Of a DNA stretch of 23,135 nucleotides, positions 13,935-23,135 are shown one piece after another. The notes under the pieces were generated by a model. That model did no database searches. It saw only the letters and a program-made list of their open reading frames with translations, and was not told where the DNA came from. This DNA is from Cladosporium halotolerans (lineage: Eukaryota), in contig NW_027191458.1 of assembly GCF_011745625.1 (NCBI RefSeq), positions 992,001-1,015,135 of the forward strand, written 5' to 3'. Each line of letters starts with the position of its first letter. Position 1 is the first letter of the stretch. The position numbers and the translations under genes are program-made.

Positions 13935-15743
13935 TCATGGGCGTCGTACGAACTCTATCTCTTGTTTCGTATCGGGTGTGTATACGAGGACATGGTTGTA
14001 CTGAGGCTCTTGCGGCTTCTGAGCATCGGGTAACTTGAGATCAAGATGAGTGATCGCATGAGCGAGCGCAGTCTTTATAACCGCAACAGCCAGGAATCGA
14101 CCGGGACAAGCATGGGATCCAGCGCCAAATTCAAGGGCTTGAGGGTTTGTCGATACACTGAGGTAGCGTGCACTCTGATCTGGCTGCTCGTTACGCTGGC
14201 GCCACCATCGGAAGCCGTCGAATGGGCGGGCTGCAGTTTCGGGGTCCGCATCGGGGTCGATCGAGGGGACACAGATGTAAGATGACGCCGGCAAGACGGT
14301 ACCGTCGCTGAGATGCAGAGGCCGCAGTGCTTTGCGGTAGACCGACAGCACATTTTGTGAGACGTGACGCGCCGATTCCTTGATGAAGCTGTCCATCTTC
14401 TCCAGTTTCGCCAGCGAGGCAACGGATAGTTCTTCTTGTTCGACCACGGATCGAGCCTGTTGCAGCTCTTCGCGCAGCTCTTGCGTGTATTCCGGGTGGA
14501 CCGCGATGTCAATGAGGGATTGCATGACCTAACAAATCAGTCGGCCTTGTCATTTTCCCCCGACGTATCTGTAGACTCACCGCAAGACCTGTGCTGCGAA
14601 TCCCTGCGAAGTTCAGCTGGATCAATGCGACCACCAGCGCGGATACATCGTCCGGACGACGACCAGCAGAAGTAGACTTTTGGATCCACCATTGAATGAA
14701 GTCCCTCGGTGGAACAAAGCTGTCTTTCCGCATACTCTCAATTCTCGTCTGGCAAGGTCAGAATGGATACTGTTGACGGTCTGCTGGCGGGGATTCTTCA
14801 TCCTACCTACCTTGACTAGAGGTCGGATTTTGTCCTCCATTCTTCGCACGTTGGCCTTCACATCACGAGGGCCTTTCATGAAATTCGCAGCGATGGGACG
14901 AAGCCAGACTGGTACACGCATAAGAGACCCGGCTACGCCGACCGAGCTCAAGCCAAGGTCAACGCAGGCCGCTTTCTACCACTCTAGTCAGCGGGCAGTT
15001 CGAAACATAGTCTAAAGGATCGAGGAATAGATATACCCATTCTGGATCCTTTGCCAGATCTTCCCCGACAAAAATACGCTGATAGAGAGAGAAACAAAGT
15101 GCGATGCAGAAGTCGTGAACGCCAACCGTAGATTTGCCTGCAACTCAGAATTAGTCAGTTGCCAGACCTGGCGTAGAGCACTTAAAACACACCATTCTCG
15201 GTGTCGGGGAGAACATGGGCTTCGAAATGGGCGGAAATGTCCTTCTGAATGGCAGGCAGATAGAAAGAAATCTGTTTCGTCAATTCTGACCGGACGTAAG
15301 CAACAACCCAGCTGTAAGGCCCATCTGATCGTCCAGACTATTAGTGAGACAAGCTCAAGAAGTTACATCGATGGAAGGCAGCACGCACCAGGATCATCGG
15401 GCGTCAGAGATCCGATGTAGGTCCATCGACCTAACAGCCGCTCTTGAAGGTCAGTGTTCGAGCTGATCTGATTATCGGGTTTCCAGACGTATTCGTTGAT
15501 GTACTTGTGTGGTAACACATATATTCTGCGGAATGGTAGGCGCAGCCGGTAGATAGTTTGCCGTACTTGAGACCATTGCTTTTTGACGACATCTTGTAGG
15601 ACTTCGGCACTTTCGCCGCCAAACTCTGGGATCTTGGATTGAGCTGGCCGTCGCCAGACCACGGCAGCGAAGGTAAGAAGCCAGATTGTAACCCCAATGG
15701 CCACATACTTTTCTGCCAGATGATCAAGGAAGATTTGGCTCAT
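13935..15743 (-). CDS. Cytochrome P450 monooxygenase, secondary-metabolism type; exons 15743-15389, 15324-15193, 15137-15037, 14975-14811, 14748-14581, 14528-13935 (~504 aa)
   Basis: N-terminal membrane anchor; RIFVGEDLAKDPEW; I-helix LNFAGIRST; KMDSFIKESAR (ExxR); FDGFRW; heme motif FGAGSHACPGRF. Five GT-AG introns; exon lengths sum to 1515 nt in frame. Confidence 0.92.
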
Positions 15744-16462
15744 GTTATCGGTGGTTGTACAGCGTATTCGTCGGTATTGCGATTACCATTGCTCACTGAA
15801 TCTACATATAATATGGAAGCCTCTAGTATTGCTCATTACCTGGCTGAAGACAAGAATCAGCTATGCTTTCAAGATCACGGACCGAAGCCTATTCGACGGA
15901 TCATGCTAGCGGAGGCGTAAGCGAGTCTCGGGGCAGAGATTGGCAGCGCTTCAGCCGCAAACTCAAGTCATCATTTCAGCTCCGCTACACTAGTGGGATC
16001 GCTCCGCTAGCACAAGCCCAATCTCAAAGTAGAGAGACGCAACTGATCTTCGCCTATAGAGCGTTGCCTGCTTGTCCGCAATGATCGGGCGTCCCATCCC
16101 GCAAACCGAATCCTTCCTGACTGTCTGGCTCTGGCGGTTGACTCATGAACTCCGCCAAATGCGCCTTGCTCAACCATTTCGTGCAGATCGTTGCAGCTCG
16201 AGTCAATCAACATGTCCGCTCGATACATTCAGCTCGCTCGCAAATGCTCGAATGCTCCCTCTGGGCAGGTCTCTGGGGATCAGCTTCTGCAGAGCTTGGG
16301 TTACATTCTCCCCACGCGCCACGGTCGTCATCCCGTCCTCGCGCTAATCGAAATCAGATTATGCTGTGGAACAGCAAAGTAGTTCTGTGCTAGTTGAAGC
16401 ACATTCTATAGACTGATACGTGTGCCATGTCTCAGCTATCTCGATGTACTCCCAAATTCTTC

Positions 16463-18100
16463 TCACGAGCTCTCAATCGAAAGACCAAAAGACGTTACCA
16501 ATTGCAAAGTAGCCACAATGCACTGAAAGACGAACTGGGGGATTGATTAGTGATAGACTAAACTTGAGCCGAGGCCAACTTACCAAGATGTTTTGATCGA
16601 ACGGTGCCTTCAGCCCGTTTAATAAGCCCCAAGACCATAAAGCGCCCGCAACAGTTGGACCGACGGCTCTGCTCGCCGAAATCGCGGCTTGTGCAAATGA
16701 CACAGTGATGCCGCGATGGTTGGGCGGAGCGGACAGCGTAAGCTTGAATAAGAAACATATTAGCAAAGATCGAGTTCTGATCTCAACAAGCGGAGCTCTC
16801 ACCAGTATTGCCACACTCGTGTAACCGATCACGACGGCCGCGATACGCATTCCGAGTAGAAGGTAGAGGCAGCTCCACTGAAGCAATGATTTGTTGGGCA
16901 GTTCAAGAACGAAGCCGAATGAGATGTATACGACCAAGAAGAGAATAGAAGATATTCTCCACAGGGTCGCGTACGTCAGCCGTTGCGAAAGCATCGGGTA
17001 GCCTACGAATTGTACAGTGAGCACAATCGGGCCGAGGAAGAGAAGAGTTCTTGCGATGTCGCTTGAGGTAAATCCCAGGCCGATAGGTAATTTGGTCGCT
17101 GCTATTGCGGGATACATCTCGTCAAAAGAGATAGCGTGGAGGGCGATGATTCTGTGATCAAGTTAGAACAGGCAGCGTCAACACCCTAAGACGTGTAACT
17201 AACGCATGGCCGCCTATAAGTAGAACGAGGCTGCGAGTACGCTTTGGTGCCGACTTCAAGGTCGCCTCATCACCTCTTGGAGCGATGAGAGGGGTCTCCT
17301 CGTCTTCAGTTCTTGCGAGCTCTCGAGACGGCTTCGATATATCCAGATTAGTCTCCTCCAAATAGGGAATGCAAAGGACTACGACAATGATGTTGTAGCA
17401 TGCACTGATAGCGCAGGGAAGTAGATATGGATATTGAGCAAAAATCCCAGCCGGCCCCGTGAAGCCGTACTTCTCTGTGGGTTGACACAGGAAGCCGCCT
17501 AGAAGAGGCCCCAAGAGGGTACCCATCGCTGTACAAAGCCCAAATATCGAGAACGCGCGACCTTGGTGGATACCATTGTTGGCTGCAAACTCTCCCACTG
17601 ACGTTCTGGAGACACCAGCGTTGCCTAGCATAAAAAGCGTTAAGCCAGGACCAGGACGATGAACTGGTATTCTCCGTACCATTGAAAAACCCACAGAGGG
17701 CTCGGGATATTATGGCCATCGTCAAGTTTCCAGAGATGCCATAAAGTACAGTACACACCGCGGAGCCGACGAGACCGAACAAGAGAACCGGCTTGCGTCC
17801 GAGGCGGTCACTGACGGCGCCATACAACGGTGCAGTAAAGACCTGGGCTACGAAGAATGCGGACGCTGTTAAGGCAGTGTCAGCCGATTCAAGTGGTGAA
17901 TGGAGGTCGTGTGGTGCTATGGTCTTACTGATAACGCCACACCAGAAGGCGACAGAGCGTTCGTTCACAGCTGGAAAATCGCGGACCATGAAGACCACAA
18001 ACGACAGAAGCATAGTCGCGGCCAATGGTTCGGCGAGCACCACCAAGCCGGTGAAAAAGAGCGCTCGCCTGACAGCGAGGCTCTGAGAATCACTCGCCAT
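16463..18100 (-). CDS. MFS transporter (drug:H+ antiporter-like, probable cluster exporter); exons 18100-17929, 17865-17680, 17624-17204, 17151-16803, 16742-16584, 16534-16463 (~452 aa)
   Basis: LAEPL, motif A GAVSDRLGRKPVLL, NGNAGV, GTLLGPLLGG (motif C-like), YPYLLPC, LEET, EETPLI and RAVGP. Many hydrophobic helices. Exon lengths sum to 1359 nt in frame. Confidence 0.88.
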
Positions 18101-18576
18101 TGCTGAAGAATATGGTCCTCTTAGCCCGACTTGTGATGGTTTGTGTATGCATCGCTGGGCGATGGCGAGATGAGCTTATATGACCACGCCAGCCATCGCT
18201 CGTCCCATCGCTTCCCAAGACTATGGGCTTCAGAAGTCATGTTGAGATGCATTCTCCGGATCGAACACAGTGGGATGGAGCAGCAATGACACGGACGTGG
18301 ACGTAAGGAATGTTGCATTCGGTAATAATAATGGTCCGTCGCACTAGCGGAGCGGAGGCGAGGGCGGACCGCCCGCATCGACTTCCCTGCTTCCACCGCA
18401 GGGGCCCACTTTTCCAATCCTTCCCCTTCGCTTCTCTACACTCGCCGTCTCTATGCATCATCGTCATCTCCGTCCGCATCTTCAGGTCCACCGCGTTAGG
18501 ACTCTTTGGCAGCCTCTACCACTATGCAGCTAGCTCCATTCCTCCAGTCAGGCGTGCAGGACCCGGACTCCCTCTC

Positions 18577-19354: not shown

Positions 19355-19809
19355 TTCGGGTAAGTCCTGTTGCTTGTGCACGCCATTCTGTGGCCACGAA
19401 AGGAAACACATGTCTTATAGCAGTACAATTCCTCCGGGAAATGTCAATCTGGGAGCTGAAAATGCGGTCTTCGAATGGCATTGCGCCACTCCGCAAGGTG
19501 CCTCTAGCGTCGCCGCAATCTCATACCAAGCATACACGAGACGCAGGTGAATCACACTAGCGGTTCCTGCAGTGCTTACATGCGGGCTGGGGATGATGAT
19601 CATGCGGCTTTCGCCTCGCTCTCAGCTGCGGACTGAATTGGATCTTGCGGAGCAATACGACATCTCGGACCGCGCAGATCGTAGAGACAATGTCGATGAA
19701 TTGAGAGGTAAGTAAAGACGACAGGTATATCACAATGCTTCGAGATCATAAGCATCATCGTCAAAGCAAAGGTAACAGCACAGAGTCGTTCTTTTGCAAT
19801 CATTCGACT

Positions 19810-22800
19810 ATGTCTATCTCAGGAGAAGAAATCGCCATCATCGGCACGTCTTGCCGTGTTGCCGGTGCAGAAAGCCCTTCTGAGCTGTGGCGATCAATGG
19901 TAGCAGGCGAAGACTGGCAATTCAACACGAGCGCTCGATTCTCAGGGTATTACGACGAAGTAAACGGCAAGACAAAAGGTTTGACGAATGTACGCCACGC
20001 CTACCTGTTGAAAAACGGTATCGACCGCTTCGACAACTCTTTCTTCGGCATTGCTCCAATTGAAGCTGCCGCCATCGATCCTCAGCAAAGACTGCTCTTG
20101 GAGATCTGCTGGGAGGCGTTTGAAAGCGCCGGAATTCCATTGGATAAACTTCAGGGGTCAGATACCGCTGTCTTTGCGGGTCTCTTCACAAGCGACTATG
20201 GCACAAGTCTACTGCGGGATGTTGACACGACTCCAAAGTATCATTCAACGGGAACCTCAAACTCGATTGCGGCGAATCGCATCAGCTACTTCTTCAATCT
20301 CCATGGACCATCTATGGTTATTGACACTGCGTGCTCATCGACCGTGACAGCGTTGCACCAAGCGATCAACACCCTCAAAGCTGGCGAGGCGGAGCAAGCC
20401 GTGGTGTGTGGAGCGAACCTCATCCTCAACCCTGACATGTTTGTCACGATGAGCGAACTTGGGTTTCTCAGTCCTCGCGGACGTTGTCACTCCTTCGACG
20501 CTTCTGGTGACGGCTACGCTCGCGGAGAAGGTGTGATGGCGATTGTCTTGAAGCCTCTGAAGAAGGCAATCGCAGACAACGATCCCATTAGGGCGGTCAT
20601 CCGTGGCTCCAGACTCAACCAAGACGGGAGAACCAACGGCATTACACTACCTTCGGGCGAGGCACAAGAAGAGAACATCCGCAAGTTGTACGCCAGTATT
20701 GGCGTGATCCCCGATGACCTGGATTATCTGGAAGCCCATGGGACAGGAACCAAAGTAGGAGATCCGATTGAGATGAACGCTATCGAAAGGGTCTTTGCAA
20801 ACGAAAAGCGCGGGCAGAAACTAATCGCCGGTTCCGTAAAGTGCCACGTTGGCCACCTTGAAGCCTGCGCCGCTCTGATCGGCATCATCAAGACAATAGA
20901 GTGCCTGGAACGTGGCGTTGTGCCTGCTCAGCTTCACCTTTCTGAGCCGAATCCCAAGATCAACTTCGAGGAGCTCAAGATCCCAACTTCAACCATTCCT
21001 TGGCCCGCGAGGGAGGGCCGCGCACGCATGGCTGGCATTAACTCTTTCGGTTTCGGTGGAGCGAATGGTCACGTTGTTCTTCAACAATACATGCGCACAC
21101 ATGAGCCAGACACTGCGCCTCTAGTAAAGCACTTCCTCGTCAAAGTCTCTGCAGAGACTGAATCTGCTCTCACTCGAAGCAGGGAAGATCTGGCCACTTA
21201 TCTTTCAGACCCAAGCGTCCAGATCGGCGACGTGTCGTACACCTCCATCCTGCGCAGGTCACTCTTGCGAAAGTCCCAGTTCTTCGTGGCTTCATCCACC
21301 ACGGATCTGGTCCAGCAATTACGCCCGGAGACTAACACCAACCTGCCTGCTGTCATAACATCTCAAGGCACCCAAGGTCATAAACGCATTGCTTTTGTGC
21401 TCACCGGACAAGGAGCTCAATGGGCGCAGATGGGCAAGGAGCTTCTGAATCACTGCGCAAGGTTTTCATCCGTCATCGATGAGTGTGACCGCATTCTGTC
21501 CCAATTGCCAGACCCGCCGTCATGGACGCTGCGTAATGAGCTTTGTCTCTTGCCCTCCAAGTCGAACGTCAACAGCTCGCGCTACTCCCAACCACTCTGC
21601 ACGGCGTTACAGCTTGGCCTGATCAGCTTCTGGCAAATTCTGGGCATCCAACCTGTAGCGTGCGTGGGGCATTCCTCTGGCGAGATCTCTGGAGCGTATG
21701 CGGCGGGCATACTGACGCTCAAAGATGCCATCATCATCGCTTACTACCGCGGCATCTTTATGAGTGCTGCCTCAGCCGCGAAGCCGGGTGCCATGGCTGC
21801 AATTTCAATGAGCGCCGAGGAGTGCATACGAATGCTAAGCGCCTACGATGGCAAGGTAGACCTCGCGGCTGTGAATTCGCCGTCCAGTTGCACTATCTCT
21901 GGCGATGGCTCCTGCATTGACGAAATCGTGGCGAGATTCAAGGAAGAAGGCGTCTTCTGTCGCAAGCTACGTGTCGACACTGCGTTTCACTCGCATCATA
22001 TGTTGCCTCTGGCTGGGCCATACAAGAACGCGCTGGAGAAGGCCGGAGTGTCACCCATACGAACTGCGAACTCTGGGGCACACACAACCATGCACTCTTC
22101 CGTGTACGGACGCCCCGTGGATGCGGCAGAAGTGACTCCAGAGTATTGGGCAAAGAATATGACCCAGACTGTCCGATTCTGTGACGCCGTTGCAAGTCTG
22201 GCAAAGCTAGAGAATGTAGATGCTTACCTAGAGGTCGGACCACACCCCGCACTGAAAGGCCCTGCCATCGACAGTATCACCAACGCCATTGGACAAGGTA
22301 ACACGCCAGAATACTTCAGCACCTTGACCAGGGGAGTCCACGACACTTTGGCGCTGTTCTCATCAGTTGGCGCCATGATCTCAGCTCGGATACCCATGGC
22401 GATAGAAGGCGACGGTGCCGGTGCACTTGGACTGTCGCACACGAAGCATCGGGTTCTAGTCGATTATCCTTGCTACCCCTGGGATCACTCCACCGTCCAT
22501 TGGGCCGAGAGTCGTATTTCACGGACTCATCGTTTCAGACAGCATCGCCGTGATTTGATCCTTGGCTCAAGAGTACCTCACGACAACCCCCTTGCGATGT
22601 GTTGGAGGAACATTTTGAGAACCGACGAGTTGCAGTGGCTGGATAAGCGAAGCAATGCAGGTGAGTCATTGCTATCGCCATCGCTTTTCCTCCAGATCGC
22701 AATCAGAGCAAGCCTGCAAATCATAGGTGATCATGCGGACGACACACAAATCATCCAGCTCTCTGGCATACAATTCCACCAGCCGCCTCAACCAGTCTCT

Positions 22801-23109
22801 CTCAGAGTCCGAGAATGGGAGACGCAGTTCCAGCTGACTCCGATGGCCGCCTATTCTCGGTATAACTTTCGCCTCATGATTTGCGGTCCTTCTGAATCTT
22901 GGTTTACCGCTTGCGAAGGGCAACTGCTGCTTTCTACGGACATTCCCTTGCCATATGGCCTACAGAATGGCAGTGTCGAGGGGAAGGGAACAATGATTTC
23001 CCCTGCAGAGATCGATTCGCTTCAGTGTCCTCCGTCCAGAGAGTACACCGACAGTCCATTATGTTCATTATGTTCATTACGTCATGTCATGTTCATCATT
23101 CCGACATGA
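19810..23109 (+). CDS. Iterative type I reducing polyketide synthase, N-terminal part (KS-AT-degenerate DH); incomplete or disrupted at the 3' end
   Basis: KS: EIAIIG, DPQQRLLLE, DTACSS (Cys codon 20332), EAHGTGT, GHLE, NSFGFGG. AT: FVLTGQGAQW, GHSSGE (Ser codon 21673), AFHSHHM, LEVGPHPAL. Linker YPWDHS. DH-type start DLILG...WRNILR. ATG at 19810. Confidence 0.93.
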   Translation: MSISGEEIAIIGTSCRVAGAESPSELWRSMVAGEDWQFNTSARFSGYYDEVNGKTKGLTNVRHAYLLKNGIDRFDNSFFGIAPIEAAAIDPQQRLLLEICWEAFESAGIPLDKLQGSDTAVFAGLFTSDYGTSLLRDVDTTPKYHSTGTSNSIAANRISYFFNLHGPSMVIDTACSSTVTALHQAINTLKAGEAEQAVVCGANLILNPDMFVTMSELGFLSPRGRCHSFDASGDGYARGEGVMAIVLKPLKKAIADNDPIRAVIRGSRLNQDGRTNGITLPSGEAQEENIRKLYASIGVIPDDLDYLEAHGTGTKVGDPIEMNAIERVFANEKRGQKLIAGSVKCHVGHLEACAALIGIIKTIECLERGVVPAQLHLSEPNPKINFEELKIPTSTIPWPAREGRARMAGINSFGFGGANGHVVLQQYMRTHEPDTAPLVKHFLVKVSAETESALTRSREDLATYLSDPSVQIGDVSYTSILRRSLLRKSQFFVASSTTDLVQQLRPETNTNLPAVITSQGTQGHKRIAFVLTGQGAQWAQMGKELLNHCARFSSVIDECDRILSQLPDPPSWTLRNELCLLPSKSNVNSSRYSQPLCTALQLGLISFWQILGIQPVACVGHSSGEISGAYAAGILTLKDAIIIAYYRGIFMSAASAAKPGAMAAISMSAEECIRMLSAYDGKVDLAAVNSPSSCTISGDGSCIDEIVARFKEEGVFCRKLRVDTAFHSHHMLPLAGPYKNALEKAGVSPIRTANSGAHTTMHSSVYGRPVDAAEVTPEYWAKNMTQTVRFCDAVASLAKLENVDAYLEVGPHPALKGPAIDSITNAIGQGNTPEYFSTLTRGVHDTLALFSSVGAMISARIPMAIEGDGAGALGLSHTKHRVLVDYPCYPWDHSTVHWAESRISRTHRFRQHRRDLILGSRVPHDNPLAMCWRNILRTDELQWLDKRSNAGESLLSPSLFLQIAIRASLQIIGDHADDTQIIQLSGIQFHQPPQPVSLRVREWETQFQLTPMAAYSRYNFRLMICGPSESWFTACEGQLLLSTDIPLPYGLQNGSVEGKGTMISPAEIDSLQCPPSREYTDSPLCSLCSLRHVMFIIPT

Positions 23110-23135
23110 TATGAACATGGATGTCTGGGAATGAA
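23057..23135. repeat. Short direct and inverted ATGTTCAT repeats at the window end
   Basis: ATGTTCAT at 23061, 23070 and 23089; inverted copy ATGAACAT at 23111; TCATTCC (23096) and GGAATGA (23128) form an inverted pair. Confidence 0.55.

Follow-up and report, generated by a model that had tools for sequence, protein, structure and literature searches.

A dehydratase-like domain lacking the catalytic histidine in a family of fungal polyketide synthase–nonribosomal peptide synthetase hybrids

Introduction

The subject of this report is the dehydratase-like domain of a fungal hybrid that unites a polyketide synthase (PKS) with a nonribosomal peptide synthetase (NRPS), the 5' part of whose gene lies in a stretch of 23,135 nucleotides (nt) from Cladosporium halotolerans (contig NW_027191458.1, positions 992,001 to 1,015,135; the whole stretch is referred to below as the window). 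Where PKS dehydratases (DH) carry their catalytic histidine, this domain, here termed DH0, carries an arginine. In the reading that we hold to be highly probable, DH0 is catalytically dead and structurally retained, the histidine was lost long ago throughout the enzyme family, the ketoreductase (KR) is left as the only processing domain and the gene is interrupted in this particular copy. Dead DH domains are already documented in the fungal synthases CpaS and TerB, and because of these precedents a further example will hold little surprise for specialists; the useful outcome is that the trait defines an uncharacterised clade of PKS–NRPS hybrids, Ia-alpha.

The dehydratase-like domain and its active-site motifs

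The domain is encoded within a long open reading frame (ORF) on the forward strand, the features of which are as follows (coordinates are those of the window).

19735-23109, forward strand: long ORF (ORF call and translation)
19735..23037, forward strand: PKS–NRPS hybrid gene, 5' part (KS-AT-DH0...), defined by the ORF and 99% identical to the protein P0002
19825..20940, forward strand: ketosynthase (KS) domain, amino acids (aa) 31-402 (PF00109, 8e-72; PF02801, 3.4e-35)
21394..22284, forward strand: acyltransferase (AT) domain, aa 554-850 (PF00698, 2.7e-50)
22522..23037, forward strand: DH0, dehydratase-like domain without catalytic residues, N-terminal part, aa ~930-1101 (PF21089 sub-threshold; LovB/PsoA alignment)
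22549..22566, forward strand: RDLILG, at the place of the HPLLG-type motif, with His replaced by Asp (translation and alignment)
22636..22680, forward strand: WLDKRSNAGESLLSP, at the place of WLxxHxxxGxxxxP, with the Arg codon CGA at 22648-22650 and the Pro at +10

The true start of the protein is likely to be the ATG at 19810 (Met26 of the ORF) and not the first ATG at 19735, because the corresponding Met is the first residue of the orthologues P0003 and P0005 (MS.S.E.IAIIG). The closest solved structures to the ORF are LovB (E 3e-203) and PsoA (1e-186), both of them iterative synthases of fungi; with the relatives described below, these matches assign the window to a filamentous ascomycete. 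The KS Cys and two His motifs as well as the AT GHSxG motif are readable in the window translation, in agreement with the initial annotation, which had taken the catalytic residues of both domains to be intact. Of the DH-like domain the window covers no more than ~170 N-terminal aa, with the ORF exiting the gene after 23036/23037; in the domain analyses the full-length allele is represented by P0002, an ORF call from a public assembly that differs from the window protein at 9 of 1047 aligned aa (99% identity).

In ungapped phmmer alignments against PDB sequences, the Arg encoded at 22648-22650 falls on the catalytic-His column of LovB (7cpx, E 1.2e-14, WLDGHALQGQTVFP) and PsoA (9x2c, E 1.9e-11, WLRDHCVQGQIIVP). 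The same alignments place the window Gly on the +4 Gly and a Ser on the +9 Pro, the window's own Pro following one residue later, and pair the His of the HPLL-type motif of LovB with the Asp of RDLILG. The exchange of His for Arg, the Pro displaced by one residue and the RDLILG upstream had all been noted in the initial annotation and are borne out by the ORF and by both alignments; the end coordinate given there, 22712, overshoots the last motif codon by an immaterial 2 nt.

PF21089 (PKS_DH_N) stays below its gathering cut-off of 27 in the window (18.4 bits, aa 943-1035), in P0002 (16.6) and in P0003 (17.5), and Pfam scans of these three sequences gave no match to PF14765. Two further DH motifs belong to the region beyond the window's break and were read from alignments of relatives. 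GYxYGPxF is missing from all rows of the clade delimited below and present in the His-bearing rows of two alignments, while of DxxxQ/H the Asp aligns in the core clade (LFDW...) with the Q/H replaced, and the Asp too is missing in several wider-clade members. Whether another His might occupy the active site was judged by conservation in an 11-row family alignment, where no His is conserved inside the hotdog core and every invariant or near-invariant His belongs to the linker before the domain.

A GTGAGT...CAG stretch at 22661-22695 was considered as an intron and rejected, being 35 nt long, frame-shifting and read through in all orthologous proteins. A strain difference within DH0 is found at 22688, where the window has T (Phe985), P0002 encodes Ser and C (Ser) is read in a contig of run X15, an RNA library; the X15 contigs extend over 22380-22937, and such contigs are no proof of transcription.

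Loss of the histidine across the family

A search for longer proteins retrieved P0002 (99%) and four orthologues, two from Sodiomyces, that are 53-59% identical over this region; these five proteins are all PKS–NRPS hybrids and none has a precomputed DH family. Arg occupies the His column in P0002-P0006, the open frames of which run to 2794-3852 aa. Five further relatives spanning the whole region came from a second search, for which the DH0-to-KR region of P0003 was the query; they have R in P0016, L in P0018 and P0019 (Letrouitia and Pycnora) and M in P0020 and P0021 (Orbilia and Dactylellina); P0007, a second record from Orbilia brochopaga, likewise has M. His is absent from 10/10 relatives that cover the region (R, L or M instead), and across the clade the residues in this column are R, L, M, I and S. 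Decay of this copy alone, the alternative that accompanied the initial annotation, is excluded because all orthologues covering the region lack the His.

A phmmer search with the 337-aa P0002 domain against 1.84 billion representative proteins gave 2320 matches at E<=1e-3, only one of which, P0002 itself, reached E<=1e-30. The His motif was scored in 159 rows (10 family rows and 149 representatives): in 123 the His is followed by a Pro about nine residues on, 8 leave the site uncovered, and the remaining 28 were classed as motif-less. The latter are made up of the 10 family rows and 18 representatives, among which P0082 keeps the His without the Pro, leaving 17 His-less representatives that are concentrated near the top of the match list and include two short, poorly aligned fragments. 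P0034 was scored as having His solely by virtue of a His one place later, and is without the other DH motifs.

Trees were built from KS-AT columns only, with the trait columns excluded, for 45 full-length rows comprising 31 with His, 13 without and P0034. Twelve of the 13 His-less rows, together with P0034, fall on one side of a branch that has a support of 100 in FastTree and an SH-aLRT support of 100 in IQ-TREE (quick search, mixture model LG+C20+F+G4). The thirteenth, P0152 (Penicillium oxalicum, 2435 aa), has a Tyr in WLDGYKLEGRPVLP and sits elsewhere on the tree; judged by its position, it represents a separate, independent loss of the His in a reducing-PKS lineage that otherwise keeps it. 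The named clade members belong to five classes of Pezizomycotina (Sordariomycetes, Orbiliomycetes, Lecanoromycetes, Dothideomycetes and Leotiomycetes), plus one Aspergillus. The metagenome loci L003, L005, L007 and L009 were considered as family members and rejected, as their His is kept. Read on this tree, the His was replaced in the ancestor of the whole enzyme family and its loss defines the clade.

Fold and selection

An AlphaFold model of the P0002 domain, made with the 11-row family alignment, has a pTM of 0.71 and a mean pLDDT of 67.8. Its top Foldseek matches are PKS DH domains, namely those of PsoA (E 1e-12), RzxB, CurK (TM 0.65 on target) and LovB, all with a probability of 1.0, and the modelled DH0 retains the double hotdog fold.

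DH0 is the fastest-evolving part of the protein: the identity between P0002 and the four orthologues is 48-58% in DH0, compared with 89-93% in KS, 81-85% in AT, 78-87% in KR and 74-79% in C. The per-domain dN/dS, a check proposed with the initial annotation, was estimated between the window and L002, a metagenome contig that encodes P0006, and amounts to 0.25-0.33 in DH0, compared with 0.035-0.046 in KS and about 0.08 in AT; the values are rough, coming from one DNA pair with a dS of 1.0-1.5, near saturation. Taken at face value, these sequence comparisons indicate that DH0 is under relaxed yet purifying selection, which fits a non-catalytic domain that is still needed.

A rival reading is that the domain has acquired a new catalytic use, in cyclisation, chain release or substrate gating, with the core-clade Arg as one candidate for a residue involved. 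The retention of frame and fold across five fungal classes with a dN/dS < 1 would agree with such a use, as would the 27 invariant positions within the 337-aa domain stretch of the family alignment, the Arg found in 6/6 sequences of the core and the Asp that falls on the Asp of DxxxQ. The partly reducing PKS 6-MSAS provides a parallel in which a DH-like domain serves product release, but that domain retains its His. The variability of the His column (R, L, M, I, S), the unconserved Asp, the lack of a conserved His in the hotdog core and the standing of DH0 as the fastest-evolving protein part all make a new use improbable in our view.

The remainder of the synthase and its predicted chemistry

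Whole orthologues carry KS-AT-DH0-(about 550 aa)-KR-ACP-C-A-T-R on one polypeptide; the hybrid architecture is recognised by Pfam in P0003, P0004, P0018, P0020, P0034, P0039 and P0048, and the window itself shows KS-AT-DH0. The KR scores 175-200 bits in Pfam, and conservation is >=90% in the glycine-rich cofactor motif and at the Lys, Ser, Tyr and Asn columns. Pfam scans at E<=5 found no methyltransferase (MT) or enoylreductase (ER) family in 6/6 members. The ~550-aa region gave a weak psi-KR-type match in P0004 and, at E<=0.01, in P0020; an ER-like remnant between DH0 and KR was an impression gained by eye, which these scans leave unsupported.

The loss of the His had looked domain-specific in the initial annotation. 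The His is indeed absent and the domain no working dehydratase, but the loss goes beyond this residue: with GYxYGPxF gone, the Asp unconserved and no MT or ER family found, this is a stripped-down reducing region and not one point loss.

We propose that DH0 is kept as a scaffold, linking the KR to the condensing KS-AT part. The polyketide part would keep its beta-oxygen, as a hydroxyl or keto group, because the KR would be the only live beta-processing activity. The NRPS module would join the chain to an amino acid, and the terminal R/Dieckmann-type domain would release the product, probably of the tetramic-acid type, which might then be tailored by the neighbouring cytochrome P450 and exported by a pump of the major facilitator superfamily (MFS). 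By eye, the Tyr-x-x-x-Lys expected of short-chain dehydrogenase/reductase (SDR)-type domains reads Tyr-x-x-x-Arg in the terminal R domain of P0003, P0018 and P0020; this would fit non-reductive (Dieckmann) release. The retention of beta-hydroxyls foreseen in the initial annotation is plausible given the conserved KR motifs, but its 'polyol or lactone' product is unsupported, with clade Ia (see below) pointing to the tetramic-acid type.

A bolder form of this scheme, which we put forward tentatively and consider unlikely, would have Ia-alpha constitute a 'KR-only' class of PKS–NRPS that iteratively builds chains bearing hydroxyls (polyol-like or beta-hydroxyacyl) upon an amino acid, with DH0 gating the KR intermediates or shaping release and the Arg of the Sordariomycete core forming part of that role. 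If true, this product type would be one so far tied to no fungal hybrid synthetase.

Several points weigh against a dead DH0 with KR-only processing. The inactivity of the DH is predicted from motifs, a model and precedents; likewise, the KR is taken to be active from its motifs only. The confidence of the model is middling. The trees are unrooted and leave out the fragmentary rows, and the dN/dS values carry the roughness of a single pair. Within the core clade, the constancy of the Arg (6/6) together with the Asp on the Asp of DxxxQ is a hint of a different, retained chemistry, and several ORFs of L002 (21070-23700) are without a Pfam match and could hide a helper enzyme.

Relation to known synthases

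On the two listed accessions that were checked, the family corresponds to the uncharacterised PKS–NRPS clade Ia-alpha of Minami et al. 2020 (Sci Rep 10:13556; PMC7421883). P0004 is ROT39562 (Sodiomyces alkalinus) and P0021 is EPS39320; both fall with P0002 into the 13-row clade of support 100, and both are listed under clade 'Ia-a', that is Ia-alpha, in the part of the paper available to us, on which the following statements are based. Clade Ia-alpha comprises 16 biosynthetic gene clusters (BGCs) with a conserved P450 as the key modification enzyme, and the major clade Ia unites BGCs that lack a Knoevenagelase gene, and these the authors connect with products of the tetramic-acid type (PMC7421883). 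The products of most new clades were left unpredicted by the authors and none is named for Ia-alpha; the trans-ER is marked 'x' for the listed Ia-alpha BGCs, where 'x' is taken to mean absence, judging by the pattern of the table and not by a legend (PMC7421883). No mention of a dead DH in Ia-alpha was found in that part of the text. The P450 beside the gene, in the window as in L002, fits the key P450 of Ia-alpha, an agreement at the level of P450 presence and not of P450 type.

CpaS/CpaA (cyclopiazonic acid, Aspergillus flavus/oryzae) is, like the window family, a PKS–NRPS with a defective DH and MT and ER remnants; according to the available part of a 2009 review, the DH, MT, ER and KR of CpaS 'lack critical amino acids' (PMC3202784). 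It differs in its KR, which is described as defective too, and it makes an unreduced acetoacetyl unit, whereas the KR motifs of the window family are conserved. The comparison is one of descriptions and not of sequences: CpaS belongs to the same major clade Ia, and its loss of the DH is probably independent of that in Ia-alpha because it falls into a different sub-clade, Ia-C.

TerB, of the 6-hydroxymellein pathway, resembles the window family in having a DH0 without the His beside a KR. In the available part of the report on it, its DH0 has His exchanged for Gln in H(X3)G(X4)P, its C-methyltransferase is inactive and its KR functional, and TerB minus DH0 gave no TerB-dependent products, from which the authors concluded that DH0 is needed for structural integrity (Kahlert et al. 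2021; PMC8251887). TerB keeps its D(X3)Q and has Gln at the place where the window has Arg; moreover, it is free-standing, without KS, AT or ACP, and partners a non-reducing PKS, whereas the window gene encodes KS and AT in the same ORF.

The DH domains of LovB and PsoA (PDB 7cpx and 9x29-9x2c) are the best sequence matches of DH0, are among its top fold matches and occupy the same position in the synthase, but they carry the His at the catalytic column that the window family does not. The pyranonigrin-clade hybrids (Ia-A) form a neighbouring PKS–NRPS clade within Ia; their example PYI10942 (P0023) has recognisable DH families (PF21089 and PF14765) and matches the DH0-to-KR region of P0003 over just 7% of its length. 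A literature search found no characterised member of the family and no DH0 in such hybrids beyond CpaS and TerB, a weak absence, with most subscription journals outside its scope.

The trait has consequences for genome mining, as callers that label the region 'DH', or that find nothing there, would mis-predict the chemistry of a whole clade that holds at least 12 full-length members from five fungal classes, plus fragments. With only a live KR, the product would be narrowed to beta-oxygenated, non-polyene chains, which would turn Ia-alpha into a defined candidate for heterologous expression. To enzymologists the family offers a set of naturally occurring DH0 variants, having R, L, M, I or S where the His would be, with which to probe the architectural role of a dead DH.

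Probable interruption of the gene in the window

The gene gives way near the end of the window to unrelated sequence.

23037..23135, no strand assigned: sequence that does not belong to the gene (end of a repeated element); boundary at 23036/23037, in-frame stop at 23107-23109

The protein alignment of the window and P0002 ends at residue 1101, with the Ser codon at 23035-23037. Contigs from runs X4 (41.6 kb) and X6 (25 kb) match the window up to 23036 with one difference in 737 nt, and beyond this position they continue with 30 letters that translate to the continuation of P0002, that is, to the intact gene; runs X5 and X7-X14 (word shares 0.69-0.77) were not counted as support for the intact allele. 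Run X1 contains 0.99 of the sampled words, and in it one 1867-nt unitig with a depth of 26.5 and zero differences from the window spans the junction. A second unitig of this run differs in its left flank but also contains 23036-23065, and a third runs to 23135 and past it. From 23036/23037 the window enters sequence that is present at no fewer than two places in that genome. The gene copy is probably non-functional in this strain, from a cause that is unrelated to the His.

Two circumstances count against an interruption: X1 may be the window's own source and is then not independent, and the window ends at 23135, 98 nt past the break. They equally feed the view that assembly created the break at 23037 and that the source strain has a whole gene, a rival to the interruption only, since contigs tend to stop in this manner at repeats and X1 is alone among the mapped runs in showing the junction. 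The position of the junction within one deep, difference-free unitig speaks for a real break, as do the shares of the sampled words found in runs X2 and X3 (0.96 and 0.93), which exceed what sequence ending at 23036 would account for, a comparison of word shares only. On balance we regard an artefact as rather unlikely, though deserving of some weight.

That the loss of the His is itself part of pseudogene decay in this genome is a notion to which we attach next to no probability. The copy is broken after codon 1101 and a neighbouring SDR gene is just a remnant, but the same Arg is found in the long-frame orthologues P0002-P0006 and in strains that read through the break, the loss is placed at the base of a clade whose support is 100, and the dN/dS of DH0 is well below 1. 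Because only 9 differences from P0002 have accumulated in 1047 residues, the insertion is recent and the loss of the His ancient.

An intron at 23037 was rejected, as near-identical strains read straight on without the tail letters. The ~98-nt tail (23037-23135) has no second copy elsewhere in the window; ATGTTCATTA-like units recur in it at a spacing of 9 nt, and a short inverted repeat is present as well.

Gene neighbourhood

The following features lie upstream of the synthase gene in the window.

13948..15707, reverse strand: cytochrome P450 gene (PF00067, 2e-17, on ORF 13935-14528; synteny with L002 by blastn and tblastn)
16237..16461, forward strand: SDR remnant, 75 aa (tblastn of the L002 SDR, 44% identity, E 9e-10, no other match)
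16460..18175, reverse strand: MFS transporter gene (PF07690 and PF00083 on ORFs 17158-17709 and 17348-18175; synteny with L002)

The 26-kb contig L002 encodes a P450, an SDR, an MFS transporter, the PKS–NRPS, a fungal Zn-cluster regulator and a second MFS transporter, and the window is syntenic with it over the P450, MFS and synthase genes at 72-76% DNA identity. The SDR is whole in L002, where it lies between the P450 and the MFS gene (PF23441, 192 bits), and the window is ~800 nt shorter at this place. In the P450 region of the window (13935-15782, reverse strand) the Pfam match is confined to the C-terminal ORF 13935-14528, and the upstream ORFs gave no match despite their synteny with L002.

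The neighbourhood also bears on the idea, advanced in the initial annotation, that dehydration is supplied in trans, with a separate enzyme acting beside the dead DH to yield an unsaturated product. Room for such an enzyme might be found in the L002 ORFs without a Pfam match, or outside the window, which shows only ~6 kb upstream of the gene and nothing downstream. However, Pfam family scans recognised no hotdog, MaoC or DH-like family among 29 ORFs of L002 or 44 of the window, and no trans-ER in either, though one would often accompany enoyl intermediates; the 'x' given to the trans-ER for the listed Ia-alpha BGCs, in the available part of the clade survey, points the same way (PMC7421883). 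The idea found no backing at the orthologous 26-kb locus, and we think it very unlikely; KR-only processing is preferred.

The left edge of the cluster is sharp: left of ~12.4 kb the genes are housekeeping ones or a sugar transporter, with GH17, DnaJ/CSL, C2-domain, MCM7, GT34 and Mnd1 among those recognised.

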